Origin: an uncultured Gammaproteobacteria bacterium
GTDB taxonomy: Bacteria > Patescibacteriota > Patescibacteriia > XYB2-FULL-38-15
Length of the DNA stretch: 64,000 nt
Direction: 5' to 3'
NCBI GenBank assembly: GCA_965231095.1
Contig: OZ246416.1
Span: 536,909-600,908, forward strand
Shown here: positions 5,710 through 53,690 of the stretch, in pieces
How positions within the stretch are numbered: position 1 is the first letter of the stretch
Layout: the number at the start of each line of letters is the position of its first letter
Program-made: the position numbers and the translations under genes
Notes under the pieces: model-generated
The model's input: only the letters and a program-made list of their open reading frames with translations
What the model was told of the DNA's origin: nothing
Database searches by the model: none

Positions 5710-5714
5710 GCGCA

Positions 5715-5763
5715 GGGCGGACGATGCAAGGTGAAAACCAAGCATCGTCCGCCCGTTTTTTTT
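5715..5763 (+). terminator. Rho-independent terminator.
   Basis: gggcggacgatgc...gcatcgtccgccc stem followed by T9. Confidence 0.7.
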
Positions 5764-5839
5764 ACTAAAAAACAGGCTACATGCCCGTCTTATTTTTAAC
5801 CTTATAAACTTTAGAGCTTTTTAACTTTAAAACTAAACC

Positions 5840-27238: not shown

Positions 27239-30200
27239 TTATTCTAAAGATTTTAATTGCTCTTTAATTTTTTTAACCTTTTCTTTTTGCAATCCCAATT
27301 TCTCTTTTTCTCCAGCCACAAGTTCTTTGGGTGCGTTTTGGAGAAATGCCTTATTGGATAATTTATTTTCTAAAACTCCCAGATATTTTTCCGCTTCGGC
27401 CAATTCTTTTTCCAGGCGCGCTTTTTCTTTGGGAACGTCAATCAACCCGGCCAACGGCAAATAAATTTCGATGCCCCCCGCGATCGCTCCGGCCGACCAC
27501 TCCGGTTTTGCCCCGGATTTTTTAATCACCAAATTTTCCACTCGCGCCAAGCTTCTAATAATTCCCGCCTGCTCTTCCAAAAATTTTGTTTTTGCGCCGC
27601 CATACATTTCAACCGAAACCCTCTTCGCCGGCTCTATCTTATAATCAGCCCGCATGGCGCGAATAGCGACAACAACATTTTTCAAAATCTCAAAATCTTT
27701 TTCCGCTTTTTTATCAATCAACTTCTTTTCCGTTTTCGGCCACTCGGAAATCATCAATAAATTTCCGCCAAAATTAGGCCACAACTCCTCGGTCACGTAT
27801 GGCATAAACGGATGCCAGAGTTTAACAATTAACGAGTAACAATTAACAAGCAACAAATTGTTTGGTTGGATTTTATTTATTTCAATATACCAATCAGCAA
27901 ATTCGTCCCAGCTGAAAGCCCGCAATTTTTCTCCGGCCTGGGAAAACTCAAAATTATCCAGGTGTTTTGTAACCTCGGCGACGACATCATTCAGCCGCGA
28001 TAAAATCCACTTCTCCGCCAATGTTAAATTTTTACTTTTTAATTGTAATTTTGACTTTTGACTTTTGACTTTTGACTTTTCGATCACATATCTTCCAATA
28101 TTCCACAGTTTATTTGTAAAATTTCTAAAACCCGCGATTTTTTCGTCACTTAATTTCATATCATTTCCCGGCGAAGTGCCAAGCACCAAAGAAAGCCGCA
28201 CCGCGTCCGTGCCGTATTTTTCTATCATATCCAGGGGATCAATAATATTGCCAAGCGACTTGCTCATTTTTCTTCCTTTTTCATCGCGGATCAAGCCATG
28301 AAGATAAACATTATGAAACGGAATATCGCCTAAAACATAAGTTGTCATCAAAATCATTCTCGCAATCCAAAAAAATAAAATATCATAACCGGTTTCCAAA
28401 ACAGAAGTTGGATGATATGTTTTTAAATCTTTTGTTTTTTCCGGCCAACCTAAAGTTGAAAAAGTCCAAAGCCCGGAAGAAAACCATGTATCCAAAGTGT
28501 CGGGATCTTGTTTAAGATCTTTTTGGCCGCAGGCGGGACAAGAAACCGGAGCGAATTTTATCTCCAAAGATCCGGCCGGTTTTGGATAATCAAGTTTTAA
28601 AAAATCTTTGTTGCTCGCGAGATTGGTCTTAAAGCCCTGCACCATGCGACAAACGTCACCGTGCGTTACAACCAATATTTTTTTTCCGGCATATTTTTTT
28701 GTCACCTCTTCCAAAAATTCAAAAACTCTGGATTTTAAACTTTCAAAAGATTCAATTCCCTTCGGGTTTCCGCTCTGCCAGGCTTCAAAATTATTTTTTC
28801 TAAAATTATCAAGTTCAAAATCGGGCCCGCCCTCAAATTCCCCAACCCCGACCTCGCGTAATCTTTTATCTTCAATTATCGGAAGATGAAGATTTTCATT
28901 TATAATCGCTGCCGTATCTTTTGTCCTTTTAAAATCTGAGCAAAAAATCACGCTGAAATTTTTATTTTCAATTTCCTTGGAAATTTCACGAATCTCTTTT
29001 TCCCCATTTTCGGTCAAACCATTTGTCTGCTTGGAAACGTCCGAATTTAATTTATTCGACAAATTACTCTTCGCTTCCCCGTGGCGCATAAACAAAATTT
29101 CCGTCGGCGCAAAATCGGTCACGGCCGGCTCGTTACACTTTGCGCAATACCAAACCGGAATCTGGTGCCCAAACCAAATTTGGCGGGAAATATTCCAATC
29201 GCGCAAATTATCAATCCAATGAAAATAAGTTTTACTAAAGCGCTCGGGAATTATTTTTATTTTTCCGCCCTCTACCGCTTCACGCATCAATTTTTTTAAT
29301 GTCTTTCCGCCGCGCCGTTTTATTGGTTTATTAACATTAACAAACCACTGTTTTTTAATCTGTGGCTCAATCAATCCCTCGCCGCGCGAATTTATCGCCA
29401 CCCGATGAACATAATTTCCATCAATATGATCAACTAAACCCTTGGCCCGAAGTTTTTCCACAATTTTCTCCCGCGCCTCGCCAATTTTCATTCCGGCAAA
29501 TTCTCCGGCAATCGGAAGCAACTTGCCATCAAAATCAATAATCTGCTCTTTGTCCAAATTATGCCGCTCGGCAATTTCAAAATCTGTCGCGTCGTGCCAC
29601 GGAGTAATGGTCATCACCCCGGTGCCAAAATCCATATCAATCGCCCTATCTTTAATAACGGTGGCGGTTATTTTACCGTTGATCCACTCCACCGTTAATT
29701 TTTCCCCGTGCTTATATTTTTTGTATCGCTTGTCATCCGGATGCATCACTACATATTTATCTCCGAACTTTGTCTCGGGCCGAGCCGTACTGATCACAAA
29801 CGGCCCATACTTAAAATAATAAAAAGGAATTTTCTGTTCAATCCATTCCACCTCATCGTCGGAAACTGTAGTTTGGAGCGCCGGATCCCAATTTACAATT
29901 CTCTCCCCGCGGTAAATCAAACCATCATCATACATCATCTTAAAAACCGTGCGCACGGCCCGCGACCGCGGCTCATCCAAAGTATAGGCCTCGCGCGACC
30001 AGTCGCAAGACGATCCCATTTTTTTGATTTGATTTTTTATTGTGCTTTTTGTGCTTGTAATAAATTTTTCCACTTCACCCAAAAATTTCTCCCGGCCCAA
30101 ATCATGGCGAGTTTTTCCTTCCCGCTCTTTCAAAAGTTTTTCCACTTTGGTTTGTGTGGCAATGGCCGCGTGATCCGTACCCGGGAGCCATAAAGTCCGT

Positions 30201-30445
30201 TCGCCCCGCATCCGATGATAGCGAATTAAAATATCCTCCACCGCAAGCATTACGGCATGGCCCAAATGCAGGGTGCCGGTCACATTCGGCGGCGGCATAA
30301 TAATGGAAAATGATTTCCCTTGTCCAAGGCGATCTCTGGCTTGACGCGGCAAATTATCTGGATTAAAATACCCAGATTTCTCCCATTTTCCGTAAATCTC
30401 GTCTTCTACGGCTTTTGGATTGTACGCTTTCTCTAACTCTCGCAT
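27239..30445 (-). CDS. valS: Valine--tRNA ligase (1068 aa) carrying an inserted histidine-phosphatase (PGAM-like) domain.
   Basis: PPPNVTGTLHLGHA, KMSKSLGN, C-terminal coiled coil. Insertion at aa ~447-625 (nt 28573-29107) with LFMRHGEAKSN and VVTHGDV motifs between CAKC and CPAC. Confidence 0.9.
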   Translation of the reverse strand: MRELEKAYNPKAVEDEIYGKWEKSGYFNPDNLPRQARDRLGQGKSFSIIMPPPNVTGTLHLGHAVMLAVEDILIRYHRMRGERTLWLPGTDHAAIATQTKVEKLLKEREGKTRHDLGREKFLGEVEKFITSTKSTIKNQIKKMGSSCDWSREAYTLDEPRSRAVRTVFKMMYDDGLIYRGERIVNWDPALQTTVSDDEVEWIEQKIPFYYFKYGPFVISTARPETKFGDKYVVMHPDDKRYKKYKHGEKLTVEWINGKITATVIKDRAIDMDFGTGVMTITPWHDATDFEIAERHNLDKEQIIDFDGKLLPIAGEFAGMKIGEAREKIVEKLRAKGLVDHIDGNYVHRVAINSRGEGLIEPQIKKQWFVNVNKPIKRRGGKTLKKLMREAVEGGKIKIIPERFSKTYFHWIDNLRDWNISRQIWFGHQIPVWYCAKCNEPAVTDFAPTEILFMRHGEAKSNLSNKLNSDVSKQTNGLTENGEKEIREISKEIENKNFSVIFCSDFKRTKDTAAIINENLHLPIIEDKRLREVGVGEFEGGPDFELDNFRKNNFEAWQSGNPKGIESFESLKSRVFEFLEEVTKKYAGKKILVVTHGDVCRMVQGFKTNLASNKDFLKLDYPKPAGSLEIKFAPVSCPACGQKDLKQDPDTLDTWFSSGLWTFSTLGWPEKTKDLKTYHPTSVLETGYDILFFWIARMILMTTYVLGDIPFHNVYLHGLIRDEKGRKMSKSLGNIIDPLDMIEKYGTDAVRLSLVLGTSPGNDMKLSDEKIAGFRNFTNKLWNIGRYVIEKSKVKSQKSKLQLKSKNLTLAEKWILSRLNDVVAEVTKHLDNFEFSQAGEKLRAFSWDEFADWYIEINKIQPNNLLLVNCYSLIVKLWHPFMPYVTEELWPNFGGNLLMISEWPKTEKKLIDKKAEKDFEILKNVVVAIRAMRADYKIEPAKRVSVEMYGGAKTKFLEEQAGIIRSLARVENLVIKKSGAKPEWSAGAIAGGIEIYLPLAGLIDVPKEKARLEKELAEAEKYLGVLENKLSNKAFLQNAPKELVAGEKEKLGLQKEKVKKIKEQLKSLE

Positions 30446-34938: not shown

Positions 34939-36087
34939 TTACTTTTTTTCAAAAAACATCAGGGAAAGGATAACCCACAACCCGCCAAAAGCCGCCAGGG
35001 TAAAGACGCAGACAAACGCCCAACCGATAAATGGAATCAAGCCAATCAAACTCGTAAGCGTAATGCCCGCCACCACCGTCTTCCAGCTAAAATGAAAATC
35101 TTTTCCCTTTGAAAAAAGTTTCCAGAGCAAACTTCCCAGCGCCATGCCGCCCAAAGCCGGACTTAAAACCATCAAGAAAAAATATAAAAGCATTCCGCCC
35201 ACACCAAGCACACTGCCGATGATCGTAACTAAAGAAACAATCGCCGCGATCGGCAAACAAATGGCAATAGCCAAACCGCGCAATAAATCCCAACCGAATT
35301 CTTTTGAATTTCTTTTAACAAATTCTTCCGTCTGGCGGCGGAAAATCCCATAAAGAAGCAGCCCGACCAAAAGCACCGACAAAAATTTAAAAATCCAAAC
35401 ACCAAAAATTGTTACCCACAGCGCATTTTTTCCTTCTCTCTCCCAACCCTCAATTTTTTTAAAATCAACCGCTCCGCCAATCGTGGCCGCTGAATCAATC
35501 TGCGCTTCCTCAATCGCCTCATAGGAAAGGGCTCCGGAAATTTCCGCGCCCGGGCCAAGTGTCAATTTTTTAACTTTAGCAAAAACATCGCCAGAAATTT
35601 TTCCATTAATAATCGCTTCTTCACCGTAAATTTTAAGGCCGCTTTTCGTCTCCCCGGAAAACGTCACCATTCCTCCGGCCAAAGCCACATTTTTTCCAAA
35701 AGTCGCTCCTTCCGACACGCTCACCTGGCCGCCCGCCAAAACCGCGTCCCCCGCGACCGCTCCGCCAACCGCCACTGTTCCGCCCGCCGCCCGAAGGTCG
35801 CCGCCGATTAAACCAATCAAACTCACTGTTCCGCCCGCCGCCGCCAAATCATCTCTCACTTCGCCGGTAAAAAGAATCGTTCCGCCGGCCGCCAAAAAAT
35901 CTCCTTCAACTTTTCCGCCCAAAAGTATTGTGCTTCCAGCCGCGTAAAGATTATCAGAAATTGTTTTGTCTTTACCCAGGGTGAGCTCTTCTCCAGCTTG
36001 GAATTCCGCCGCGCCGGTCGGACTTGCGACCAAAACCAAGGCCGCGATTGCGATAATGCCAAAAATTTTCTTGCGCATAAGTGTCAT
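34939..36087 (-). CDS. Membrane protein with an N-terminal bactofilin-like beta-helical repeat domain and C-terminal TM helices.
   Basis: Repeats GDxLAAGGTxxxxGxV x5 after the signal/TM segment. About 4 C-terminal TM helices. Confidence 0.45.
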   Translation of the reverse strand: MTLMRKKIFGIIAIAALVLVASPTGAAEFQAGEELTLGKDKTISDNLYAAGSTILLGGKVEGDFLAAGGTILFTGEVRDDLAAAGGTVSLIGLIGGDLRAAGGTVAVGGAVAGDAVLAGGQVSVSEGATFGKNVALAGGMVTFSGETKSGLKIYGEEAIINGKISGDVFAKVKKLTLGPGAEISGALSYEAIEEAQIDSAATIGGAVDFKKIEGWEREGKNALWVTIFGVWIFKFLSVLLVGLLLYGIFRRQTEEFVKRNSKEFGWDLLRGLAIAICLPIAAIVSLVTIIGSVLGVGGMLLYFFLMVLSPALGGMALGSLLWKLFSKGKDFHFSWKTVVAGITLTSLIGLIPFIGWAFVCVFTLAAFGGLWVILSLMFFEKK

Positions 36088-36112
36088 AGTTAAAACTAAA
36101 TTAATTAAAAAA

Positions 36113-36652
36113 TTATTTATTCGCTTCCCCGTCCGGCAAAACCATAATTACTTTTTTGCCCCTTGACCCCAAATGTTTTGGCATCATTTGCCAGAAATAA
36201 AACAGGATGGAAAGATTTAAAATAATGGCTAAAAGTTTGAAAAAAGAAAAATCAATCGCGAGAGCCACAATGCCGTAAATTGCCACGCCGGAAAAGAAAA
36301 TAATTCCTATGTCCCGGATAAGCCACGATCGAAACCAAACGGCAAGAGCAATGCCAAAATCAATGATACCCAAAATCACCAAGCCCAACCCCAAGGAAAT
36401 TGACCTTTGTAAAATTCCGCTCGGATCGTGCGCCGCGAGCCAGTTTATAAAAATCCCCTGCGGATCTTCGGCAAGTTCCCGTGCGATCAGATTATGAATA
36501 AAATCGCTGGCCGCGACGTGGCGAATTAAGGAACTGAAAATCAGGGCGAGCGTTCCTAAAATAATTTCCAAGAGCCCCCAAACGCCCTTATAAAAAACTA
36601 TTAAGATCAGGCCGAGCGGGCGTTTAAAATATTGATCAAGTTTTTTAAACAT
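36113..36652 (-). CDS. Integral membrane protein (hypothetical).
   Basis: Several TM helices. Confidence 0.4.
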   Translation of the reverse strand: MFKKLDQYFKRPLGLILIVFYKGVWGLLEIILGTLALIFSSLIRHVAASDFIHNLIARELAEDPQGIFINWLAAHDPSGILQRSISLGLGLVILGIIDFGIALAVWFRSWLIRDIGIIFFSGVAIYGIVALAIDFSFFKLLAIILNLSILFYFWQMMPKHLGSRGKKVIMVLPDGEANK

Positions 36653-36713
36653 GAAAAATGAAAAACCGTTTATATATATGTTATAGCATTTAGAACCTAA
36701 CGATTTCCTGAAA

Positions 36714-36965
36714 TTATCTTCGCCGGGAAATTCGCCAAACCGAGGCCAGGGCCGAAAGCGTAGCGATAAAGAAAATTATCGCGAGGGCGTTTGCCGGCAC
36801 ACCCCAACCGTAGAGTTTTACAAGATCATAAAAAACATAAAGCGCGAAGGTGAAAGCAAAGCCATACATATACGAACGCCCGCGAAAAGCGGAGATAGCG
36901 GCGATAAGCGCGACCAGGCCTTCAAGGGCGATGGAGGCGATTTGAAGAATTTGCATGTAATTCAT
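36714..36965 (-). CDS. Small 3-TM membrane protein (hypothetical).
   Basis: Hydrophobic ORF. Confidence 0.35.
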   Translation of the reverse strand: MNYMQILQIASIALEGLVALIAAISAFRGRSYMYGFAFTFALYVFYDLVKLYGWGVPANALAIIFFIATLSALASVWRISRRR

Positions 36966-37159
36966 AAGATGAAAATTAATAATCTTAAATAAATTATCTC
37001 AAAAAATTGGTGGCGAGTCAAAGAGAGAAGGAGGATAACCCCATTAGAAGTTTATGAGAATCCACGCATTCGGCGGATCGCGGGGTAAATAAAAAAACCG
37101 CCTCTCCTCCCCCATCGAGAAACGGTTTTTGTTTCGGCTCTCTTCTCTCTGTCAGCCGT

Positions 37160-39577
37160 CTACCACCCGCAGCCGATGCGGCCAAGGTAGATCTCGTAGC
37201 CGCCTTCGTCGCGAACATCGGACCAGGCAAGCAAGTATTCGTGACCCGTCCAAACCAATGACAGTCCATCTCTTTGTACACAAGTTGTAGCCCGAAAACC
37301 GGAACCCGCTCTGCTACCATCTTCCTTCAATCGCATGAAGTAACATTCTGCTCTGCCAGTGGCATAATTTTCTTGCCACCAAAGACCGTAGCCATTTCCG
37401 TTCCAAGCAATAGCTGGATTAGAAGAATCGTCGGGGGTTATTGTCAGCTGTCTCTCCGTATCAATTTCCGTACCGCTTGCATCGATCCCGGCGAAGTAAA
37501 TTTCTTCTTTTCCGTCCGTAAAGGCAGTCCACACCAAGGCATAGGAAGAGCCATTCCAAACAAGCATTGGGATCGCGCCCCCTCCCGATAAGGGAGCTGT
37601 GGCTACAACCGTAGTGTCTCCAATTGGTGAAGCCATGGAAGTAAATCTGCCAAAATGTATTTCTTGATTTCCAAAAAAAGTAGATACCCACGTTAATCCG
37701 TACTCTGTGCCATTCCAAACTATATTCGGGCGAGCCAGACTAGCGGCCGAGTCTGCTACAAGTGTCATCTCTGAACCGATCTCGGCACCACCAGCGGATA
37801 ACCCTGCGAAGTAAATGTCACCATCACAAGAGTGTCCAAAGGCAATACCGAATTGACTTCCATCCCAAGCAATAGATGAATGGTAAGCCGAAAGTATTCC
37901 GATATGCTCCGCCAACAAAACACCACCGCCAATATCCGAACCCGCCGGGTCAAAATGAGCGGCGTAGATATCTCCGTAACCGGAGCGGTAATCTGTCCAG
38001 GTAAAACCGTATCCTCCGCCTGTCCAAACACCTGACACCGAAAAGAGTTGTGCGGGGGTGCCGATCACTCGTATATCGCCGCCAATTTTGGTGAGAGACG
38101 TATCTGCTCGGGCAAAGTAGATCTCGGTGTTGCCGTCACTCAAATATTCCCAAACAACACCAACTTCAGTGCCTGTCCAAAAAAGAACTGGCCTTCTTGG
38201 ATAACCAACTGAGTCTGTAAAACGTGACCCAGTGAAGGTGTACGAAAAAACCGCAGGATCCAAATCATTACAATCATAGCCACCACAAAGGCCGTCTGTG
38301 TAAGTGTCGTGGTCGCGGTCGCGAATGCGATGTCGACATGTGCCAGCCGCGCAAGAGTCGGCTGTGCAATCATCGCCATCTCCACAAGAAAGTTCCGCCG
38401 GAGACTCATCGGTCGCGCCATCACAGTCGTTGTCTACCCCATCGCAGATCTCGGGCATTTCAGAATCCACGTTACAGTATGAACCAGAACCTCCAAGCGA
38501 GCAGACATACGTCCCGCTGCAAGGAGAAATTCCGCAAACGCTCCTGAGCTCCGGCCAGTCTTCGTCGGTCGCGCCGTCGCAATCGTTGTCCAATTCGTCG
38601 CAGAGTTCGGGTGTGCCAAAAGGAATATCAACGTCGCAAACAGTGCCGCGCTCCAAGGGTTCGCAGACCCAGACATTGCTCCGTTCGCATTCCCCCCAAC
38701 CTGCTGTACAAGCAACGCCAAGCAATGGCCAGTTCTCGTCCGTCTCGCCGTCGCAGTCGTCATCAAGATGATTGCAGCGTTCAACGTGGATCTCGTAGTC
38801 TCCGTCGCAAACGGTGCCTCGATGCAGCGGCTCACAAGCCCAGACTCCCGTCCGCTCGCAAAGTGGCGTTGGCCTGAAAGCACAAACGTCGCCAAGCAAG
38901 GGCCAGGTTTCGTCGATCTCGCTGTCGCAATCTTCATCTAGGCTGTTGCAGAGTTCCGCCGCGCCGGGATGGATGCCCGCGTTCGCGTCGTCGCAGTCGC
39001 CTTCGGATTCGGTAAACGTATCGCCATCGTCGTCGGTTATTGTGGGGTCTGCTGCAGGACGTAGCCATCCTTCGACGGTGTAATTTCTGCTGTCACTAAC
39101 AACGGTGTATCTTCCACTGTCAACATCCATATCCAGGCGGCGAAAACGTCCCGGGATATTATGCCAGTTCTGCTCAATGAGCGTGATGAAGTTGCTCCCC
39201 ACCGCGTAGATGATTGCGATGTGACCATAACGGCCACCCTGGAAAGTGATCGCATCACCTTGCCGCGGGGCTTCCGTTTCGCCATTTCGGAAAGATCTCA
39301 GATCGAGTCTTTCCGCGCGACCGAATATCTGGTTAGCATTACCCCACCGTTCGCCGCTTCTTCCGTGGAACCTCTTCGCATATTCTACACACTGGTAGAA
39401 TCCGCGCCCAGTGCCAGTACAATCGCCTCGCGCGCCGTTCGAAAACGCATCAACTCCGCTCAAGGTACCTAGTGACTCCCCGCAATTGCCACTGCACGGC
39501 GCGCAGAGATCATCTCCCCAAGCAACCTGCGGCAATAGCAAACACAGTGCAACAACCAACGTCTGCAACTTTTCCAT
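37160..39577 (-). CDS. Secreted CHAP-domain peptidoglycan amidase/peptidase fused to four CxxxD(D/E)DCDGxxDE Cys-rich repeats and a 7-bladed beta-propeller. High GC (~57%), likely foreign.
   Basis: Signal MEKLQTLVVALCLLLPQVAWG. CHAP motifs FYQCVEYAKRF and GDAITFQGGRYGHIAIIYAV. Repeats LCNSLDEDCDSEIDE, RCNHLDDDCDGETDE, LCDELDNDCDGATDE, ICDGVDNDCDGATDE. 7 units of W-G-x-x-YG-x-W ... EIYF. Confidence 0.7.
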   Translation of the reverse strand: MEKLQTLVVALCLLLPQVAWGDDLCAPCSGNCGESLGTLSGVDAFSNGARGDCTGTGRGFYQCVEYAKRFHGRSGERWGNANQIFGRAERLDLRSFRNGETEAPRQGDAITFQGGRYGHIAIIYAVGSNFITLIEQNWHNIPGRFRRLDMDVDSGRYTVVSDSRNYTVEGWLRPAADPTITDDDGDTFTESEGDCDDANAGIHPGAAELCNSLDEDCDSEIDETWPLLGDVCAFRPTPLCERTGVWACEPLHRGTVCDGDYEIHVERCNHLDDDCDGETDENWPLLGVACTAGWGECERSNVWVCEPLERGTVCDVDIPFGTPELCDELDNDCDGATDEDWPELRSVCGISPCSGTYVCSLGGSGSYCNVDSEMPEICDGVDNDCDGATDESPAELSCGDGDDCTADSCAAGTCRHRIRDRDHDTYTDGLCGGYDCNDLDPAVFSYTFTGSRFTDSVGYPRRPVLFWTGTEVGVVWEYLSDGNTEIYFARADTSLTKIGGDIRVIGTPAQLFSVSGVWTGGGYGFTWTDYRSGYGDIYAAHFDPAGSDIGGGVLLAEHIGILSAYHSSIAWDGSQFGIAFGHSCDGDIYFAGLSAGGAEIGSEMTLVADSAASLARPNIVWNGTEYGLTWVSTFFGNQEIHFGRFTSMASPIGDTTVVATAPLSGGGAIPMLVWNGSSYALVWTAFTDGKEEIYFAGIDASGTEIDTERQLTITPDDSSNPAIAWNGNGYGLWWQENYATGRAECYFMRLKEDGSRAGSGFRATTCVQRDGLSLVWTGHEYLLAWSDVRDEGGYEIYLGRIGCGW

Positions 39578-39588
39578 CTCTCTACCTC

Positions 39589-40362
39589 CTATCTCTCAAA
39601 CGTCAAGGTGGTAAGTATCTGGCTCTCGAATGCTTCGGGGGTAGTTCCGTAGTCCCCGAAGATCTCTTGCTCTTGTCCTAGTTCCGGAAAGAAAATATAA
39701 TTTCTCTCCGGATCACTAAAGGCGAGAATTCCCGGGAACGCTCTCTCGTCAGGTGATTCGATTTCTGGGGTCAACGCACGAAGTTCAACGCCGGCGAGCG
39801 TACTACTAATCGTCTTGTCGCGCAACTCGAGCGCTTCACCTACACGATTGTTCGCCGTCAGCCATTCGCGAACCGACAAGTGAGACGGGTTTGAAGCAAC
39901 AGCAAATGAATACGCGCTAACGAAATCGTCGCTGCCAGCCTCTTGCAGTTGAATTTCCCGCAACTCGTAGTTGTTCTCATTCCATCCCAAGGGGGCACCC
40001 TCAACTACGCGCAAATTCCACCCCTCCGGGTACTGGAACGAGAAGCCGAGCTCCGTGTTCCTGTACTCTGTCCAGTCGGCCGGAACTTCTCCGGTCGAGT
40101 CTGTCGTGACCTCTGACGCGCTGTCTGGGGAAGTTTCGGAAACATCATTTGTCTCCGAGTTTGTATCAGCGGGCGCCGCGGTCCTAGAACCGCAACCCCA
40201 ACCGACCAAAACCAACGCGCCAAGCATCACGAGCGTAAACACGATTCCCTTCTTCATCTCTATCCTCCTTGTCCCGCATCCCTGCGGAACTTTTTTTCCG
40301 CCAACGGCGGATTTGTTAAAGAGCCGACCTTTCTTCCCTCCTTCAAAAAGGTTAAACAACAT
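39589..40362 (-). CDS. Lipoprotein (hypothetical). High GC. Contains the FSFQYPEGW motif shared with two neighbouring secreted proteins.
   Basis: Lipobox-like LVGWGCGSR. WTEYRNTELGFSFQYPEGWNL. Confidence 0.5.
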   Translation of the reverse strand: MLFNLFEGGKKGRLFNKSAVGGKKVPQGCGTRRIEMKKGIVFTLVMLGALVLVGWGCGSRTAAPADTNSETNDVSETSPDSASEVTTDSTGEVPADWTEYRNTELGFSFQYPEGWNLRVVEGAPLGWNENNYELREIQLQEAGSDDFVSAYSFAVASNPSHLSVREWLTANNRVGEALELRDKTISSTLAGVELRALTPEIESPDERAFPGILAFSDPERNYIFFPELGQEQEIFGDYGTTPEAFESQILTTLTFER

Positions 40363-40443
40363 ACGTTTTTAAATTTAAAAATTAAAACCTCTTCCATAAT
40401 TTTATCACAAAAAAAATTTTAAACCAAAAAGCGGCCCGCAGGT

Positions 40444-40490
40444 CGCTTTCAATTCTCAATTCTCAATTCTCAATTCTCAATTCTCAATCA
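40444..40490. repeat. Tandem heptamer CAATTCT x5 (then caatcac x2) in the promoter/5' region of the lipoprotein gene.
   Basis: caattctcaattctcaattctcaattctcaattctcaatcactcaatcacc. Confidence 0.8.
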
Positions 40491-41132
40491 CTCAATCACC
40501 ACCGTCTCCACGATTCTGTCTACCACTCCATCCAAATCAAACGCTTCTCGCTCGGCGAGACATTCGCTTTGCGCCGGATCATCATAATTTAAACATTGCG
40601 GATAGCGCAAAACAAAATTTAGAGAAATCAATTTTCCGTCTCGCGAGGTAGTATATGTATAGGTTGTGTAAGTACTTCCCGCCGCTCCATCGTCGGCTTC
40701 CACCACGCAATATTGCCGGCCGTCCACCATCCGCGGAATCGTGCGCTCCGGCGGACCATCGCCCAAATCAATTTCTCCGCAAACAAATTCTCCATCGGCG
40801 ACCTTAATTGTCGGCGGCCATTCAAAGGCGTCAATATATTTTGTCGTCAAAGTTTTTGGATATTTAAATTCAAACGCCCCGCCCGGATCGCGATAAGTTT
40901 CCCACCCCGGCTCGATCCCGACATCCGGCTCCGTGGACGGACACGCCGCAAACTCGCAAGTCGGCGCAACTCTTGAAACATAACTTCCGTCCGGACAAAG
41001 TTTCGCGTCGGCGGCACAAAAAATCGGTTCAGGTTCCGCACCCAAATTTTTCCCATCAAAATATCGCCACGCGGCAACTCCGCCCGCGGCTAAAATTAAA
41101 ATCACAATAATGGCGACCAAAAATTTATTCAT
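40488..41132 (-). CDS. Secreted protein (hypothetical), paralog-like to the 39589 and 42425 genes.
   Basis: N-terminal TM/signal. WETYRDPGGAFEFKYPKTL motif. Several Cys pairs. Confidence 0.45.
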   Translation of the reverse strand: MNKFLVAIIVILILAAGGVAAWRYFDGKNLGAEPEPIFCAADAKLCPDGSYVSRVAPTCEFAACPSTEPDVGIEPGWETYRDPGGAFEFKYPKTLTTKYIDAFEWPPTIKVADGEFVCGEIDLGDGPPERTIPRMVDGRQYCVVEADDGAAGSTYTTYTYTTSRDGKLISLNFVLRYPQCLNYDDPAQSECLAEREAFDLDGVVDRIVETVVIE

Positions 41133-41167: not shown

Positions 41168-41689
41168 TTACCTTATAATCTCCGTATTCGGCAGGGTGGA
41201 AACAATTTTCGCCAAATCTGCCTCGGAATAATCATTGCCCGAAACGTCCAAAATTTCAAGCTGCGTCAAATTTCCAATTTCATAAGGCAAACCAGTCAGC
41301 TCATTATTTGATAAATCCAAAATTTTTAATTTTTTCAACTGCCCAACCTCGGCCGGCACGCCGGTAAATTTATTATCGCTCAAATTCAAAATTTCCAAAT
41401 TCCGCAGTTTTTGAACTTGCGAGGGCAGGGCGCCCGTCAAATTATTTCCCGAGAGATTTAATTCAGTAATACTCGTATCATTAAAAATATCAACTGACAC
41501 AGACGTCAGTCCGCGATTGCTCAAATCCAGGGGATTCCATTCTGCCGGAACATTGGCGTTGCTCCCCGCGTCAACATTTCCATTCAAATTTTCCGGCGCT
41601 CCATTTTGCCCCGCGGAATATTGCCAAATCAAATATCCCCCCGCGGCCAAAACCAAAACGACGAGAAAAATAGTCAAAATTTTGTTCAT
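41168..41689 (-). CDS. Leucine-rich repeat (LRR) surface protein.
   Basis: ITELNLSGNNLTGALPSQVQKLRNLEILNLSDNKFTGVPAEVGQLKKLKILDLSNNELTGLP... Signal anchor. Confidence 0.85.
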   Translation of the reverse strand: MNKILTIFLVVLVLAAGGYLIWQYSAGQNGAPENLNGNVDAGSNANVPAEWNPLDLSNRGLTSVSVDIFNDTSITELNLSGNNLTGALPSQVQKLRNLEILNLSDNKFTGVPAEVGQLKKLKILDLSNNELTGLPYEIGNLTQLEILDVSGNDYSEADLAKIVSTLPNTEIIR

Positions 41690-41782: not shown

Positions 41783-42406
41783 TCACTCTCTCTGCCGCAT
41801 GAGATTAAAAGTTCCCTTAATCACGCCAAAAGAAGGATAGGTCATAGTCATTGAGCCAGACATAAGATCAGTCGTAAAAGTTCCCTGCATGGTTGTAGTA
41901 ATCTCGCCCGAAGTAAATGTTCCAAAATCCAGAGCACTGGAACTTACTCTGATCCGAACTGGCTGGGCTCCGGTATCGGCCACGCAAGTTTTGGGAACGG
42001 TAATGGTTCTTTTTTCCATACCCGGAATATTGACAATGGTTGTTCCCGAACCGCAAAGATTGGTATAGCGGAGCGTGCCCGAGGCAATATTATTTTCCAC
42101 TTCATCTATTTTCAATTCAATATCGCCATCTTCATAAAGATTAGTCACGCTGCCCTCGACCGTAAACTGGCCGTAGAGTTGCAGGCCCTTGCCTCTTAGA
42201 GAAGAAACCCAGGTACCGCGCAAATCACGCGCCGGCGTTAAATTTCCAATCGGTGGTTTCGGGGTGATGATGCTCGCGATCTTGTCGGAAATTTCTTGAA
42301 ACATTTTTGGATTTGTTTTCGCGAGATAAACAATGCTTCCCGCGGCTCCAATTAAGGCCACGAGAATAATGATCGCGACTACTCCAACTCCTTTTTGATT
42401 TTGCAT
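41783..42406 (-). CDS. Secreted protein (hypothetical).
   Basis: N-terminal TM anchor. No known motif. Confidence 0.4.
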   Translation of the reverse strand: MQNQKGVGVVAIIILVALIGAAGSIVYLAKTNPKMFQEISDKIASIITPKPPIGNLTPARDLRGTWVSSLRGKGLQLYGQFTVEGSVTNLYEDGDIELKIDEVENNIASGTLRYTNLCGSGTTIVNIPGMEKRTITVPKTCVADTGAQPVRIRVSSSALDFGTFTSGEITTTMQGTFTTDLMSGSMTMTYPSFGVIKGTFNLMRQRE

Positions 42407-42424: not shown

Positions 42425-43111
42425 TTATTTCACCTTAAACCCTTGCGTCATCTCTTCAAACTCGCCTACATCGCCCGCCCACAATTCTTCCAGCGTATTG
42501 TAAGAGAGAATCCAAAGATCATTTCCCTCCCCCCAAATAACAATCTCCAGCACATGAAAATCCAGGCCGCTTTTACGAAAAGTCATTTCCGCGGCGTAGG
42601 CTTCGCGGCCGCCTAGAGTTAAAAATTTTTCATTGGAAAAAACCACCTCGGGAATTACCGCGGCCACTTCATTTTTTACATACTCCACAACTTGCTCTTT
42701 TGTTTTTCCTTCTACCGAGTCGTAGGAAACGGCGAGGTATGTTTGGAAATTCATTTTCTTCGCCTCAGGATCGGAAATATTTTCATTGCTTTTCGCAATC
42801 ATCGCGGAAACTCCGGTTATGGCCGGAACCTGGCGCCAGCCCTCGGGATAGTTTAGGGAAAAATCGTCAGTGGCAAAAACTCCCTCATCCGCCGGCGGAA
42901 AATTTTGATTTGAATTATTTTCCAAAATTCCGGAGAGGTTTAAATTATTTTCTCCGAGGATATTGCTCTCTGTAGTTAAAAACCAATAGGCCATGGCGGC
43001 AAGGACAAAGATGACAATGATGGTGATTAGAATTGAGGAGGGTTTTTTCATAAATTTTAAAATATTATTTCGGTACCGGTAAACCAAGTTTCTGCAAAGG
43101 TAAATAATCAA
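42425..43111 (-). CDS. Secreted protein (hypothetical) with an FSLNYPEGW motif.
   Basis: N-terminal TM. DFSLNYPEGWRQV. Confidence 0.4.
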   Translation of the reverse strand: MIIYLCRNLVYRYRNNILKFMKKPSSILITIIVIFVLAAMAYWFLTTESNILGENNLNLSGILENNSNQNFPPADEGVFATDDFSLNYPEGWRQVPAITGVSAMIAKSNENISDPEAKKMNFQTYLAVSYDSVEGKTKEQVVEYVKNEVAAVIPEVVFSNEKFLTLGGREAYAAEMTFRKSGLDFHVLEIVIWGEGNDLWILSYNTLEELWAGDVGEFEEMTQGFKVK

Positions 43112-49136: not shown

Positions 49137-52100
49137 ATGAATATGGCAAGGAGGAAAAAACTCCCTACTCGGGGAACCGCAAAAGCAAGACCGGCCGTGA
49201 AAAATTTATCTATAAATAATAGATATTTAGCCAAAGGTCTTATGAAAAAAAATACCAAAACACTCTTAATCACGAGCGTAATTTTTGTCATAGCTGTTTT
49301 AGCCGTAGCCACGACTATTTATATAACTAAATTTGTTCTCTCCTCCGACGGCTCGGGGACAAATTCTGTTTCCCCGGGCACCTCCACCGCCGGTGCCACA
49401 GGCGACACCCAAACTTTTACCTTCACCGCGGCGGAAACCATGGGCTCGGGCGAAATTTCTATCACGGTTCCTTCGGGCTGGAGCGCGCCGCAAGGATCGT
49501 CCGGCACAGCCGGCTATACCACAGCCACTTCAGCCGCGGGCACGGTTGCTGACGTAAAAGATAATGCCGACTCGGCCACTGGCTGGGTGGCGGGCAACGC
49601 TTGCACAAACGGACTTTCGCTTGATACTTCAGTAAAACACGAAGGTGGCGGTTCGGTTCAATGTGCCAATGGCAACGAAGGCGCTGGAAACCGCTGGTAT
49701 AAAAACATTACCTCGGAAAATTGGTCCGGCTATACCCGCGTCGGATTTTGGATCCGCTCTTCAGGATCAATCAGCGACACCAATCTCCGCTTTGGTTATG
49801 ACAACTCGGCGAATTTAGCCAGCCCCCTGGAACAAATTTCTTTTGGCCAAGTAATTCCGGCCAATACTTGGACTTATGTCGTTTTAAATTTTGGCGCCAC
49901 AACCCGCACCTCGGTTGTGAGTTTTGGTTTTGTAATAAGAGACGGAGCGGACCTGGACAATGAAAATGTTTGGATTGATGATTTATTAATCGGTCCGGGC
50001 GTTCCGACATATCCTGGCGGCAATGAAATTCGCGCGAGAATTTTACAACTTACGAGCGGACAAACCATGACCGTCACTTACGGCGCGGGCGGAGGAACTT
50101 CCGGAGCAACTGTTCCCACTGCCGCCGGCTCATACAATTTTTTAACTCAATCAAAAGTTTCCGATGCCGGCACTCTTACAAATATTGCTTCTTCGCCAAC
50201 CGTCACCGTAGGCGCCGGAGCGATTTCACAATTTACTCTGACTGATCCGGGAAATATAGGAGCCGGAGAACGGCTTGGCTACACAGTGACGAGAAAAGAC
50301 CAATACGGAAACACTGTCCTCTCGGGCACGAGCACGGTTTATCTTTATTCCAGTTCCGCCGGAGCCAACAAACGTTTTTACGACGCGGCCACGGGCGGAA
50401 ACATTATTACTTCAGTCACGATCGGAAACGGCCAGCCGTCAAAAAACTTCTGGTATTATGATGAGGCTCCTGGAACTTACACCATCACCACTTCAGACAA
50501 TACCACAAGCCCGGATGGCACCACGGGGATTGACGACGCCACCGATTCGGTCACAATTTCGGGCGGGGCCGTCGCGGAATTTATCTTAAACGATCCGGGC
50601 AATCTTACCTCCGGAGCGCGCGCCCCCTACAGCGTGTCACGCGAAGATCAATTTGGAAATTTAGTCACCACCGGCTCCACCACAGTTTATTTATACAGCA
50701 ACTCGGGAAGCATGGATTACGCTTTCTATGACGCGGCCACGGGCGGAAGCCAAATAACTTCAATAAATATCGGCAGCGGAAATTCTTCGGCAAATTTTTG
50801 GTATTATGACGAGCTGGCTGACACTTGGACTATCACCGCTTCAGACAATGCCACAAGCCCCGACGGCGCAACGGGCGCCTCCGACGGAACCGACAGCATC
50901 ACTGTTCTCCCGGGCGCCACTTCCCACTTTGTTTTAAATGATCCGGGAGATACGACAGCCGGCACGCGGCTTGGATATACTGTGACGCGCCAAGACCAGT
51001 TTGGAAATGTTGTCACTTCCGGGACGAACACGGTATATCTTTATTCCGATTCTTCCGGATTAAATTATCATTTTTATAACGCGGCCACGGGCGGAAGTAT
51101 CACGAGCTCCCGCCAAATTACGAGTGGCCAATCTACGGCAAACTTCTGGTATTATGACGAGCTGGCGGGAACTTTTTCTATCACTGCCTCCGACAACTCT
51201 TCGACCCCCGATGGAAATTTAGGGATTGATGATTCATCAGATAGCGTAATAATTTCCGGCGGAGCGGTTTCAAAATTTTCTCTAAACGATCCGGGCGATA
51301 TGACCGCGGAAACGCGGCTTGGCTACATTGTCACAAGAAAAGATCAATACAATAATCCTGCCACTTCCGGCTTTAACACCATCTATCTTTATTCAACTTC
51401 CGTAAGTCCGGCCAAAGCGTTTTTTAACGCGGCAAGCGGTGGCAATCAAATAACTTCCGCGAGTATTAACGACGGCCAATCCACGGCGAACTTTTGGTAC
51501 TACGACGATCTGGCCGGAATTTATACCATCACCTCTTCGGACAATGCTACTTTTCCGGATGACGCCACGGGAATTGACGACGCGACAGATTTATTGACTG
51601 TAAATGCCATACCCATTGTGGCGACCAGATTTACAATTTTAGATCCAACTGACGGCACGGTTGACGCGCCGATCACTGTCACAATCCGAGCGGAAGATGA
51701 CAGCAATAACGTTGACACAACCTACCAAAACGATGTGACATTGGTCGCGAGCAGTTCAGCTACGGGCGAAGGTTTGGTAAATATTGTAAATGGCCTTGGC
51801 ACCCTAAATCTTTCCGACACAGTCGCGGAAACTGTTAATTTATCTTTGTCTGATACAGAGGGCACTGGCCTTGTTGTCACCTCCGCGCAAGGAGTAATTT
51901 TTTCCGCCGGCGCCGCAGCTAAATTTTTTCTAAACGACCCGGGCAATACAGTCGCCGGCACCCGTTTGGGATATACTGTGACGCGCAAAGACCAATTTGA
52001 AAATTTAACCACCACGGGAACCACCGTAGTTTATCTTTACACCAATTCTTCTGGCACAACTACTTTTTATGATTCAGATGTCGGAGGAAATGAAATTTTA

Positions 52101-53690
52101 CACACCACTATTCTTTCCGGCCAATCAGACGCGAACTTCTGGTATTACGATGAACTCTCCGGCACACCAACCGTCACTGCTTCGGACAATTCTTCTTCTC
52201 CAAATGGAGCCACGGGAATTGACGATGACACTGACACACTGACAATTGGCGCCGGGGTTCTTGCCAAATTTACTTTAAATGATCCTGGCGACATGAGCGT
52301 GGAAACGCGGCTCGGCTACACAGTGACGAGAAAGGATAATTTTAATAATTTAATAACTTCGGGCGGCGCGACAGTTTCTCTCTACTCCAATTCCGCGAGC
52401 GCCAACAAATCTTTTTATGACGCGGCCACGGGAGGAAGTATTATCAATTCCACTGACATCAGCGCGGGAAATTCCGCGGCAAATTTTTGGTACTATGACG
52501 ATACCGCCGGTACCTACACCATTACCGTTTCGGATAATTCTTCTTCTCCGGATGGCGTGGACGGCACAGACGACGGAACCGACGCGGTGATTGTAAGCGC
52601 TGTACCGATTGTCGCCACGCGATTTAGCATTTTAAATCCAACTGACGTAACCGTCGGCAGCAACGCGATCATCACGGTGCGCGCCGAAGATAATAGCGGC
52701 AATGTTGACACAACTTACCAAAACGATGTCACTCTGGTCACAAGCGGATCGGCTACGGGGGAAGGATTGGTGGATATTGTAAACGGCATTGGAACAATAA
52801 CTGTAAGCGACAACATTTCTGAAATAGTTATTTTGTCCCTCACTGACAGCGAAGGAACTGGTTTAAATATCAGCTCAACTCAAGACATTGTCTTTCTTTC
52901 GACTAGCGGCGGAAGCGGAGGAATTTCAATTCCGGCGGAAGGGGCGCCAACTCTCCCCGTTTCCCTGACCGGCGCCACGCTTTCTTTTTCCGGCCGAGCT
53001 TTTCCCAACGCTAAAATTACAATCTTGGGCCGCGGAACTTCGCAAGACATTCCTTTAAAATCCTCTTTGGCGGACGCAAGCGGTGGATTCAATATAAATT
53101 TTGTCGGGGCTCTGCCGGCCGCCGCCATCAACGCTTACAAACTTACTTTTGAAGATAAAGAGGGCCGAACAACAGAAACTCCTGATTCCACTCCGGAGCA
53201 AATAACAAGTTTTAGCGCCACGGATATTTTTGCTCCGCCAACCCTTGGCTTTGGCAAATCAACTTTCTTGCGCGAAGATTTAATTACTCTGGCCGGCTAT
53301 GCCATGCCCGGAAATAAAATTGAAATTGAAATTGACGAAAAACAAATTCCTCGAGAAATTTTTGCCGGCAACGACGGCTCTTTCAAGCTTTCTCTTACTA
53401 ATTTTGATTACGCTTTCGGAAGCCACAAAGCCAGAATCCGCCAACGCGACAGCGCAAAGAGGGCAAGCGATTTTTCCTTGGATAAAATTTTCACCATCGC
53501 CAAGGTTTTCGCCCCGAACGCCGACTTAAACGACGACGGCAAATCCGACATTAGTGATTGGAGCATATTCCTCTTCCGCTGGGGCTCACCCGACCAAACA
53601 AAAAAATCTACCATTGATTTTAACAACGACGGCCGGGTGGATATTTCCGATTTCAGCATTTTTTTGCAAAGTTTAACCGCCACAAAATAA
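49137..53690 (+). CDS. Giant (~1500 aa) secreted/membrane-anchored surface protein with ~8 degenerate ~100-aa repeats, two ~75-aa repeats and a C-terminal dockerin module.
   Basis: Alternative start 49243 (MKKNTKTLLITSVIFVIAVLAV signal anchor). Repeats LNDPGxxxAGxRLGYTVTRKDQFGNxVTSGxxTVYLYS...ANFWYYDE...TITASDNSSSPDG. C-terminal DLNDDGKSDISDWSIF and DFNNDGRVDISDFSIF (dockerin Ca-binding repeats). Confidence 0.75.
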   Translation: MNMARRKKLPTRGTAKARPAVKNLSINNRYLAKGLMKKNTKTLLITSVIFVIAVLAVATTIYITKFVLSSDGSGTNSVSPGTSTAGATGDTQTFTFTAAETMGSGEISITVPSGWSAPQGSSGTAGYTTATSAAGTVADVKDNADSATGWVAGNACTNGLSLDTSVKHEGGGSVQCANGNEGAGNRWYKNITSENWSGYTRVGFWIRSSGSISDTNLRFGYDNSANLASPLEQISFGQVIPANTWTYVVLNFGATTRTSVVSFGFVIRDGADLDNENVWIDDLLIGPGVPTYPGGNEIRARILQLTSGQTMTVTYGAGGGTSGATVPTAAGSYNFLTQSKVSDAGTLTNIASSPTVTVGAGAISQFTLTDPGNIGAGERLGYTVTRKDQYGNTVLSGTSTVYLYSSSAGANKRFYDAATGGNIITSVTIGNGQPSKNFWYYDEAPGTYTITTSDNTTSPDGTTGIDDATDSVTISGGAVAEFILNDPGNLTSGARAPYSVSREDQFGNLVTTGSTTVYLYSNSGSMDYAFYDAATGGSQITSINIGSGNSSANFWYYDELADTWTITASDNATSPDGATGASDGTDSITVLPGATSHFVLNDPGDTTAGTRLGYTVTRQDQFGNVVTSGTNTVYLYSDSSGLNYHFYNAATGGSITSSRQITSGQSTANFWYYDELAGTFSITASDNSSTPDGNLGIDDSSDSVIISGGAVSKFSLNDPGDMTAETRLGYIVTRKDQYNNPATSGFNTIYLYSTSVSPAKAFFNAASGGNQITSASINDGQSTANFWYYDDLAGIYTITSSDNATFPDDATGIDDATDLLTVNAIPIVATRFTILDPTDGTVDAPITVTIRAEDDSNNVDTTYQNDVTLVASSSATGEGLVNIVNGLGTLNLSDTVAETVNLSLSDTEGTGLVVTSAQGVIFSAGAAAKFFLNDPGNTVAGTRLGYTVTRKDQFENLTTTGTTVVYLYTNSSGTTTFYDSDVGGNEILHTTILSGQSDANFWYYDELSGTPTVTASDNSSSPNGATGIDDDTDTLTIGAGVLAKFTLNDPGDMSVETRLGYTVTRKDNFNNLITSGGATVSLYSNSASANKSFYDAATGGSIINSTDISAGNSAANFWYYDDTAGTYTITVSDNSSSPDGVDGTDDGTDAVIVSAVPIVATRFSILNPTDVTVGSNAIITVRAEDNSGNVDTTYQNDVTLVTSGSATGEGLVDIVNGIGTITVSDNISEIVILSLTDSEGTGLNISSTQDIVFLSTSGGSGGISIPAEGAPTLPVSLTGATLSFSGRAFPNAKITILGRGTSQDIPLKSSLADASGGFNINFVGALPAAAINAYKLTFEDKEGRTTETPDSTPEQITSFSATDIFAPPTLGFGKSTFLREDLITLAGYAMPGNKIEIEIDEKQIPREIFAGNDGSFKLSLTNFDYAFGSHKARIRQRDSAKRASDFSLDKIFTIAKVFAPNADLNDDGKSDISDWSIFLFRWGSPDQTKKSTIDFNNDGRVDISDFSIFLQSLTATK

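Follow-up and report, generated by a model that had tools for sequence, protein, structure and literature searches.

Polymorphic toxin systems, a concept of Zhang and Aravind, reportedly combine a conserved scaffold and a variable toxin tip with an immunity gene adjacent to the toxin gene. Immunity to lysostaphin and zoocin is a modification of the wall (Lif and Zif) and not a binding protein. Little is known of how cells of the Patescibacteria (Candidate Phyla Radiation, CPR) recognize the cells on which they live and open their envelope, and hardly any of these bacteria have been brought into culture. In Xanthomonas, lipobox-bearing X-Tfi inhibitors shield the producer and its own wall from the peptidoglycan hydrolases (X-Tfe) that it secretes (PMC10933484). 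Here we analyze a 64,000-nt stretch of contig OZ246416.1 (positions 536,909–600,908), hereafter called the window, in which positions 37160–40362 are filled by two co-oriented minus-strand open reading frames (ORFs) of 257 aa (39589–40362) and 805 aa (37160–39577); the coordinates given in a preliminary description of this DNA are reproduced for both. The locus is a lineage-native, cassette-swapping wall hydrolase with a matched partner, a new variation on the enzyme/immunity theme. The partner is encoded by the upstream gene, which co-varies with the catalytic head of the hydrolase, a relationship that the preliminary description overlooked. We interpret the pair as a Sec-exported, propeller-targeted peptidoglycan hydrolase aimed at the walls of other cells, accompanied by a cognate tethered inhibitor, and give this interpretation a probability of about 0.5.

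Catalytic heads, partner classes and their exchange

The elements of the pair are as follows; identifiers beginning with L denote loci or contigs and those beginning with P denote proteins.

39589..40257, minus strand: partner gene, 222 aa when read from an internal ATG; the longest ORF, which starts at 40362, has 257 aa
39575..39591, minus strand: gene junction, in which the partner stop codon TAG overlaps a GGAGG Shine-Dalgarno sequence that is followed by 7 nt and the hydrolase ATG (read from the sequence)
37160..39577, minus strand: hydrolase gene, an ORF of 805 aa
39515..39577, minus strand: putative signal peptide, residues 1–21, MEKLQTLVVALCLLLPQVAWG|DD, with cleavage probably at AWG|DD (inspection only)
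39038..39514, minus strand: CHAP catalytic head, residues 22–180 (PF05257), with Cys63 at 39389–39391, His119 at 39221–39223 and Glu135 at 39173–39175
38258..39037, minus strand: Cys/Asp-rich repeat region, residues 181–440, with 27 Cys, 44 Asp, four PF11617 'MopE' motifs and flanking DxDxD half-motifs
37163..38245, minus strand: seven-bladed β-propeller, residues 445–805, assigned from seven repeats and from AlphaFold2/Foldseek, ending in ...GCGW
39005..40056, minus strand: exchangeable cassette of ~1.05 kb, with breakpoints mapped in L007/L008 and L009/L005 and transferred to the window (exchanged segment 991–1045 bp)

Four types of catalytic head are found at this locus in relatives: CHAP and three M23 subtypes (M23a, M23b and M23c). 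The catalytic motifs are intact in all of them, with HxxxD and HxH retained in every M23 head. A Peptidase_M23 domain takes the place of CHAP in nine of the closest homologs, and the remaining protein is homologous. The CHAP heads are 78–92% identical to one another (68–73% for the most distant member), the M23b head (L024) is 35–38% identical to M23a, and the M23c head (L028) is 31% identical to M23a and 25% to M23b. The replacement of CHAP by intact M23 peptidases at the same position suggests that the CHAP head, too, hydrolyzes peptidoglycan; because an unrelated peptidoglycan-cleaving fold substitutes for it, wall cleavage is indicated as the selected activity. Mean identities per module are 79–83% for the head, 69–75% for the partner C-terminal domain, 64–65% for the repeats and 49–53% for the propeller, which is the most divergent module (the propeller in the window is 35–48% identical to that of any ortholog).

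Different heads sit on nearly identical bodies. The CHAP-type protein P0004 and the M23-type protein P0013 differ in their heads, with propellers that are 100% identical and repeats that are 96% identical; P0006 (CHAP) and P0015 (M23) are 95 and 92% identical in the propeller and repeats, respectively. Loci L007 (CHAP) and L008 (M23), each from a different sequencing project, share a 4.1-kb stretch of 99.4% identity that starts at hydrolase codon ~192 (|EGDCDD, in the first repeat); upstream of that codon they have nothing in common. Comparison of L009 with L005 gives the same 3′ breakpoint and places the 5′ breakpoint inside the partner gene, directly after ...GEVPAGWTEYRN (WTEYRN). The cassette bounded in this way begins past ...GEVPA[GD]WTEYRN with the partner globular domain, continues through the 11-nt spacer and its ribosome-binding site, and ends with the signal peptide and catalytic head, up to ...|EGDCDD. 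The backbones of swap-mates are 94–99% identical and differ only by this ~1-kb segment, and the occurrence of four types on mosaic bodies implies at least three replacements. The hydrolase body also recombines independently of the head/partner cassette. We propose that homologous recombination exchanges the head and the partner globular domain as a unit, with ...GEVPAGWTEYRN in the partner and EGDCDD... in the first hydrolase repeat serving as conserved arms, and that such exchange would account for the matched combinations of head and partner, at least four in number, on bodies that are interchangeable.

Two further observations concern recombination around the locus. Synonymous divergence (dS) is uneven, at 0.27 in the repeats and 0.09 in the propeller, hinting at additional mosaicism. 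Small GIY-YIG endonuclease-like ORFs lie at varying places around the locus in relatives (L001 6939–7199, L008 4239–4499 and L006 10662–10916); the one in L001 is directly upstream of the partner gene, and none was seen in the copy in the window. Such ORFs could promote local gene conversion.

The partners share an MKKGIV...LVLVGWGCG segment and an acidic Ser/Thr linker ending in GEVPAGWTEYRN, after which they split into discrete classes. Their N-terminal parts are 50–80% identical, and the classes show no profile–profile similarity to one another beyond the first strand (HHalign probability ≤13%). We classified every locus that was fetched by homolog look-ups and by genome and metagenome scans with the partner alignment. 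The resulting 19 distinct loci comprise 8 with CHAP heads, 9 with M23a, one with M23b (L024) and one with M23c (L028); each head type is accompanied by its own class of partner C-terminal domain and no locus is discordant, although the loci are phylogenetically related and the counts are those of non-independent events. All database members of the partner family (29/29) fall into the same four classes. The pairing is intact where the pair sits in other genomic neighbourhoods (L025 and L026). Among the M23a loci, head and partner distances correlate (rho 0.87) and head and propeller distances do not (−0.06). The head–partner correlation is weak (0.34) in the CHAP set, owing in part to the aberrant C-terminus of the L001 partner.

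The head and the partner domain are very probably functionally coupled. As in effector–immunity pairs, the type of partner is, in these comparisons, specific to the type of enzyme, and the two genes are adjacent, co-oriented and, judging from their layout, co-transcribed. The spacer between them is 11 nt in the window and 10–12 nt in all relatives in which the genes do not overlap, relocated copies included.

The two proteins and the operon that encodes them

The preliminary description had proposed a secreted 805-aa protein made up of a CHAP domain, four Cys/Asp repeats and a seven-bladed propeller, and all three parts are borne out, with export judged by inspection of the signal peptide. At the N-terminus, MEKLQTLVVALCLLLPQVAWG|DD can be read as a Sec signal peptide, within which AlphaFold2 places a helix at residues 2–14. 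The CHAP domain (PF05257) spans residues 59–137 (E 6.6e-12; 46.2 bits against a cutoff of 26). Among solved structures, the head is closest in sequence to the amidase domain of Escherichia coli glutathionylspermidine (Gsp) synthetase/amidase (3a2z; E 3.3e-5), in the alignment with which QC63VEY, GH119IAII and IE135QN lie opposite QCVEF, GHVAII and AEQN, with Glu135 and Asn137 in the IEQN segment. We take these segments of the Gsp amidase to hold its Cys59/His131/Glu147 triad. The Cys63, His119 and Glu135 motifs are invariant in the CHAP-type orthologs of alignment A1 (8/8) and in the CHAP-type loci (7/7). The Cys and His needed for CHAP catalysis are therefore present in all CHAP-type orthologs, and the head is predicted from its motifs to be catalytically intact.

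The repeat region matches PF11617 in four stretches (E 2.8e-25; 88.7 bits against a cutoff of 27), whose CxxxDxDCDxxxDE cores are CNSLDEDCDSEIDE, CNHLDDDCDGETDE, CDELDNDCDGATDE and CDGVDNDCDGATDE at residues 210, 268, 326 and 378, respectively. It is followed by seven W-x-G-x-x-[YFV]-[GAL]-x-x-[WF] motifs (W467, W518, W571, W621, W674, W725 and W776), each succeeded by an EIYF-like motif, with a period of 49–53 aa that agrees with the seven W-G-x-YG-x-W...EIYF blades originally read from the sequence. An AlphaFold2 model based on 17 orthologs is all-β over residues 445–805, with a predicted local distance difference test (pLDDT) score of ~85 and a four-strand periodicity. Only the propeller part of this full-length model was used; the head and repeats have pLDDT <50 and are unreliable, because the alignment mixed CHAP and M23 heads. 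In Foldseek searches, residues 445–805 match the seven-bladed YncE (TM score 0.70), many seven-bladed WD40 proteins and the prolyl-oligopeptidase propeller, all at 9–14% identity. Profile searches with hidden Markov models, which place CHAP above its cutoff, give the propeller no match to a named repeat family (WD40, Kelch, PD40, BNR or TIGR04275) in Pfam at E ≤0.1, and TIGR04275 scores 17.9 bits against a cutoff of 85.

The C-terminal ...G-C-G-W (residues 801–805, window 37163–37177; C803 and W805) is invariant in the 15 A1 orthologs that, besides the query, have this ending; P0008 ends in GCNW. Cys431 and Cys436, in a CGG-x-DC-x-D segment (residues 431–436) just before the propeller, are also invariant. 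These invariant cysteines might form a disulfide by which the final blade is fastened to the stalk.

The partner protein, numbered here in its 257-aa form, consists of a signal peptide ending in LVLVGWG|C57, an acidic Ser/Thr-rich linker (residues 58–96) and a globular PsbP-like domain (residues 97–257). It had been called a lipoprotein, and the invariant Cys57 after a hydrophobic stretch is in keeping with that call. The lipobox region, MKKGIVFTLVMLGALVLVGWG|C57, has an invariant Gly at −1 but departs from the usual [LVI][ASTVI][GAS]C pattern in its Trp at −2 and Gly at −3; lipidation at Cys57 is thus no more than plausible. The Pfam matches of the partner are weak (PsbP_2/PsbP, E 0.013), and the M23c-type partner exceeds the PsbP_2 cutoff (28.9 against 27 bits). 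The globular domain opens with the F-x-F-x-YP-x-GW strand that is typical of the PsbP-like fold. An AlphaFold2 model of the C-terminal domain reaches ~70 pLDDT, and its eight best Foldseek matches in the PDB are all PsbP or CyanoP (best E 0.019, probability 0.97). With moderate confidence, based on these models, we regard the partner as a membrane-tethered protein-binding module of PsbP-like fold. The family is tiny, with 29 clusters among 5.8 billion.

The partner ortholog in L001 (L001 7206–7928, from a Falkowbacteria genome) has an aberrant last ~35 residues that look frameshifted relative to all other CHAP-type partners; this could be a sequencing error or partner decay. Upstream of the pair lies an array of small exported proteins (40488–41132, 41168–41689, 41783–42406 and 42425–43111, all on the minus strand) that is conserved in relatives. 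Two of them begin their globular part with a PsbP-like first strand (the 228-aa protein matches PsbP at E 2e-4), and another is a leucine-rich-repeat protein. We considered whether the small PsbP-like neighbours are orphan partners of other head types and rejected this, as the common part is the first-strand motif only.

The remaining signals of the operon are listed here.

40399..40409, minus strand: promoter-like extended −10 (TGTGATAAAAT) upstream of the operon, found by sequence inspection as a consensus match only and kept in L006 and L009 (leader alignment)
40258..40362, minus strand: leader of the partner ORF or an alternative N-terminal extension of it; AAGGAGG precedes the internal ATG (40257), and no Shine-Dalgarno sequence precedes the first one (40362)
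40297–40311, minus strand: small, conserved hairpin TCCGCC-GTT-GGCGGA in the partner leader
37091..37130, minus strand: terminator-like hairpin (AAAAACCG...CGGTTTTTTT) with a T7 tail, closing the two-gene operon (pattern match only)
37021–36993, minus strand: promoter-like site for the next gene, after the terminator-like hairpin (pattern match only)

Because AAGGAGG precedes the internal ATG at 40257 and the first ATG at 40362 has no Shine-Dalgarno sequence, the internal codon is probably the true start of the partner, giving 222 aa. Pairing in the leader hairpin is preserved in L001 through a compensatory change from T-A to C-G. The reading frame of the leader is also conserved, in-frame 18-codon insertions in some relatives included, and on sequence grounds the leader could be either a translated N-terminal tail or a regulatory 5′ region. 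Searches for RNA families with Rfam returned only tRNAs within the window. A tandem heptamer, (GAATTGA)x5, occupies 40449–40483, between the terminator-like hairpin of the upstream gene (40426–40449) and the promoter-like −10 of the operon.

Lineage, proposed function and rival explanations

The interval had been described as a foreign island of ~57% G+C (GC), far above its flanks. Measured over 37160–40362, GC is 53.2%, and only positions 38400–39000 reach 56–63%. The contrast with the flanks (41–45%) is real but mostly reflects protein composition, which is rich in Gly, Asp, Cys and Ala. When each protein is recoded according to the codon preferences of 33 further genes of the window, 52.1% is predicted for the hydrolase gene, which has 53.3%, and its GC at third codon positions (GC3) departs little from expectation (observed minus expected, z = 0.7). 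Along the hydrolase gene, GC3 rises from 0.54 in the head to 0.60 in the repeats and falls to 0.44 in the propeller. The partner gene is a compositional outlier (GC3 0.593, z = 4.0).

A protein identical to the hydrolase (P0001) is encoded on an 886-kb NCBI contig, and full-length homologs (52–59% identity) occur in metagenome-assembled genomes (MAGs) of Candidatus Falkowbacteria and Patescibacteria. Gene order is the same in GCA_016214745.1, with PsbP-like small proteins and a ~240-aa gene upstream and, downstream, an 83-aa gene, DUF2127, desulfoferrodoxin, cupredoxin, a flavodoxin-like gene and rubrerythrin. Relative to that assembly, the cytoplasmic neighbours are 82–91% identical, the exported neighbours 40–67% and the hydrolase 59%; the hydrolase ortholog is likewise GC-rich against its own locus (0.547 versus 0.441). 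Synteny extends to GCA_018818855.1 and to JGI, ENA and Logan contigs, and orthologs of the flanking genes lie on both sides of the pair in at least five other assemblies. The Logan assembly of SRR8863431, possibly made from the same reads as the MAG, is 100% identical over 35160–40478; its contig L002 ends at 40478, inside the (GAATTGA)x5 repeat, which probably explains the break. Elsewhere in the window lie core genes (aminoacyl-tRNA synthetases, NusA, GroEL, pyruvate kinase and PPDK), and the borders of the pair show no tRNA, integrase, other mobility gene, phage or plasmid signal. The organism is a small-genome, Falkowbacteria-like member of the Patescibacteria, with which an attaching or parasitic lifestyle would be compatible.

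In the mechanism that we propose, the downstream gene would encode a Sec-exported modular peptidoglycan hydrolase whose N-terminal head is a CHAP cysteine amidase/endopeptidase. Behind it, the Cys/Asp repeats would serve as a rigid, disulfide-rich stalk or spacer, probably stabilized by Ca2+ or another metal, and the C-terminal propeller would be the binding and targeting end, its variability selecting the target cell. The partner, translated first from the shared transcript, would be held in the membrane of the producer by a lipid-modified Cys57 or by an uncleaved signal. Its acidic Ser/Thr linker could let it reach the wall zone, where the PsbP-like domain would bind the head and keep it inactive on the producer, so that the partner would serve as an inhibitor or cognate immunity protein. 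The target of the enzyme would be the wall of a different cell: a competitor, or the host on which this presumably episymbiotic bacterium lives. We also suggest, more tentatively, that the locus is the first recognizable toxin–antidote style weapon or host-interaction module of the CPR: a propeller-targeted bacteriolysin whose head and PsbP-like inhibitor domain are traded as a cassette by recombination, and whose propeller diversifies separately to host or competitor surfaces.

Several points weigh against a hydrolase aimed at other cells and restrained by its partner. The PsbP-like fold is not, to our knowledge, among the known families of peptidoglycan-hydrolase inhibitors, and its assignment to the partner is weak (Foldseek E 0.019, pLDDT ~70). 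Orphan immunity-gene arrays are common for true immunity genes; in the loci examined there are no orphan partner genes or arrays, and each locus has one partner gene. The ratio of nonsynonymous to synonymous substitution rates (dN/dS) over the whole propeller is 0.25 in the one informative close pair, similar to that of neighbouring genes, and so offers no support for positive selection acting through point mutation; no more than two pairs were sufficiently close for this calculation, and the propeller is identical in the second. In the M23 types, head and partner do not complement each other in charge; all modules are acidic, which makes this comparison uninformative. Other exported proteins at the locus also diverge rapidly (cupredoxin 40%, a 214-aa protein 56%), and the nearest solved relative of the CHAP head is a glutathionylspermidine amidase and not a wall hydrolase. 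Tight linkage alone helps to hold head and partner domain together and inflates their co-variation, as the stretch separating the two exchanged parts contains no conserved sequence. Finally, the pair occurs as a single copy in a syntenic position, which is also what a housekeeping autolysin would show.

That last resemblance leads to another explanation, which we consider unlikely but far from negligible: the enzyme may be an autolysin that remodels the cell's own wall during growth, division or the passage of surface machines, with the partner as its matched tether, activator or regulator and the propeller binding the cell's own variable surface polymers. The position of the pair among core genes and its retention across divergent relatives would be natural for such an enzyme, as would the lack of orphan partner genes in the loci examined and the unremarkable dN/dS of the propeller. 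Co-variation is explained equally well, in that a regulator contacting the head would have to change with it. A change of catalytic fold is also not foreign to this class, as partner-controlled division hydrolases differ in fold by lineage (PcsB with CHAP, CwlO with NlpC/P60, and the EnvC-activated amidases). The tempo argues the other way: heads of unrelated fold sit on 94–99% identical backbones, a turnover far faster than expected for a core division enzyme, and at least four matched types occur within a narrow clade. In addition, identity between the propeller encoded in the window and that of one relative is only ~42%, against 82–91% for the cytoplasmic neighbours.

The other explanations concern the origin of the segment or the activity of the protein, and each is far less probable than an autolysin. 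Recent acquisition of the GC-rich interval 37160–40362 from a high-GC donor would account for its 53% GC between flanks of 41–45%, for the outlying GC3 of the partner gene and for the raised GC3 of the head and repeats, and the best matches of the repeat region outside the Patescibacteria are in Myxococcota. The GC of the hydrolase, however, follows from its amino-acid composition. Because the pair occupies the same syntenic slot in relatives, where its ortholog is equally GC-rich, and the hydrolase codon usage is host-like, a recent island is improbable, and the clean borders of the pair agree with this; the earlier suggestion of foreign origin does not stand. Still more improbable is an assembly chimera that joins reads of two organisms. 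It would fit the shifts in composition at ~37000 and ~40400–41000 and the end of the second assembly's contig at 40478, but that assembly is identical across 35160–40478, 3′ junction included, the contig end coincides with a tandem repeat, and flanking orthologs surround the pair elsewhere; we thus find none of the chimeric signature that the preliminary description had raised as a possibility. A phage or defence origin was rejected, as PHROGs gave only distant matches to CHAP endolysins (best E 1.3e-7), PADLOC gave none and IMG/VR scans contained no relatives. We regard the pair, from these sequence comparisons, as native to a Falkowbacteria-like lineage, and the data are compatible at most with cassette exchange within that lineage or with an ancient acquisition. 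As to activity, the name of PF11617, its four strong motif matches and the cupredoxin and redox genes nearby might point to the handling of metal (copper) through 'MopE' repeats, or to a non-enzymatic surface adhesin. PF11617 is, however, a short motif without specificity for MopE/CorA (PMC6189053), and the same motif is present in teneurin-type Cys-rich regions (PMC3278476). We found no homology to MopE/CorA beyond the 30-residue motif and no MopE match in a PDB search, the head is catalytically intact by its motifs and its replacements are other wall hydrolases, which leaves copper handling or adhesion with little to recommend it.

The locus presents a small, testable set of candidates, comprising an enzyme, a probable inhibitor and a probable targeting domain, and its near-identical backbones with different heads and different partners constitute a natural experiment. 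Were the partner an inhibitor, the four unrelated classes of its domain would be new inhibitor scaffolds for CHAP and M23 lysins, enzymes that are in antibacterial development. Should the pair prove to be a weapon traded as a cassette, it would define a new family of peptidoglycan-hydrolase inhibitors and give direct molecular access to the means by which ultrasmall epibionts choose or breach their partner cells. For annotation, the interval illustrates that a GC 'island' can arise from protein composition alone and that the 'copper-binding' label of PF11617 is uninformative on function.

Other parts of the window contain features apart from the pair. Positions 1–6000 have ~60% GC, with GC3 of 0.71–0.74 in their genes (z ~7 above the other genes in the window); they encode a Ser/Thr protein kinase (1145–2917), a 305-aa protein without a confident domain (3076–3993) and a collagen-triple-helix-repeat protein (4354–5709). 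This is the truly atypical segment of the window, and represents either a real transfer or a mis-join. A 1068-aa valyl-tRNA synthetase-like protein (27239–30445, minus strand) has a His_Phos_1 domain at residues 450–602, inside the match to the catalytic domain, and its ortholog in L009 has the same list of domains. On the plus strand, a 1517-aa ORF without a Pfam match at E ≤1e-5 (49137–53690) is followed by a 576-aa protein with a cohesin domain (53712–55442); both are probably further large surface proteins.

Comparison with described systems

Our literature search, which was incomplete in coverage and is therefore weak evidence of novelty, turned up no account of this locus, nor any of head/partner cassettes in Patescibacteria. 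By sequence, the closest CHAP relative of solved structure is the E. coli Gsp amidase (3a2z and 2io7), with which the QCVE, GH(I/V)AII and EQN motifs and a C-terminal β-hairpin extension align. The Gsp enzyme is cytoplasmic and acts on a small-molecule amide, whereas the head described here is exported and interchangeable with M23 wall peptidases, and its NCBIfam score lies far below the family cutoff (30.8 versus 882 bits). The partner resembles proteins of PsbP/Mog1-like fold (PsbP, CyanoP, PsbP_2 lipoproteins and Eag/DUF1795), which are protein-binding modules, in its first strand, its weak PsbP_2 matches and its best structure matches. Eag chaperones are cytoplasmic and bind the transmembrane helices of effectors, unlike the exported partner, and we know of no PsbP-like protein that acts as a hydrolase inhibitor. 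Three of the four partner classes are also not recognizably similar to one another.

Lysostaphin, zoocin A and the CHAP or M23 endolysins of phages share with the hydrolase the fusion of a catalytic head to a separate targeting module and the shuffling of modules. Their targeting relies on SH3b, LysM or choline-binding repeats, in contrast to the seven-bladed propeller behind Cys/Asp repeats seen here, and phage lysins are only distant matches (best E 1.3e-7), with no relatives in viral contigs.

The likeness to polymorphic toxins lies in the conserved body and the alternative enzymatic tips that recombine together with an adjacent cognate gene, with breakpoints in conserved arms. The geometry is mirrored here, the variable tip being N-terminal and the partner gene upstream. 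Further differences are that the partner gene is only partly exchanged, that the tips are wall hydrolases and not nucleases or deaminases, and that no orphan cassettes were seen. The hydrolase has only a Sec-type signal, without a trafficking domain (T5, T6, T7 or PrsW) or secretion genes in the window, and each locus has a single partner gene, so that the pair does not qualify as a polymorphic toxin system.

The closest parallels are the Tae–Tai and Tse–Tsi pairs of type VI secretion (T6SS) and the X-Tfe/X-Tfi pairs of the Xanthomonas type IV system (T4SS), both of which depend on contact and match each peptidoglycan-hydrolase effector with a cognate immunity protein. In contrast to effectors of the T4SS, T6SS and type VII system (T7SS), the hydrolase has no such secretion signal and no neighbouring secretion genes in the window, and its export is apparently by plain Sec. 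The partner, with its PsbP-like fold, is unrelated to the Tai, Tsi and X-Tfi families, and the protection that it may confer is deduced from sequence. The likeness to these systems is that of an adjacent, co-transcribed pair in which a predicted wall-cleaving enzyme is matched by a specific, exported and perhaps lipobox-type protein, and in which differing enzyme folds each have a partner of their own.

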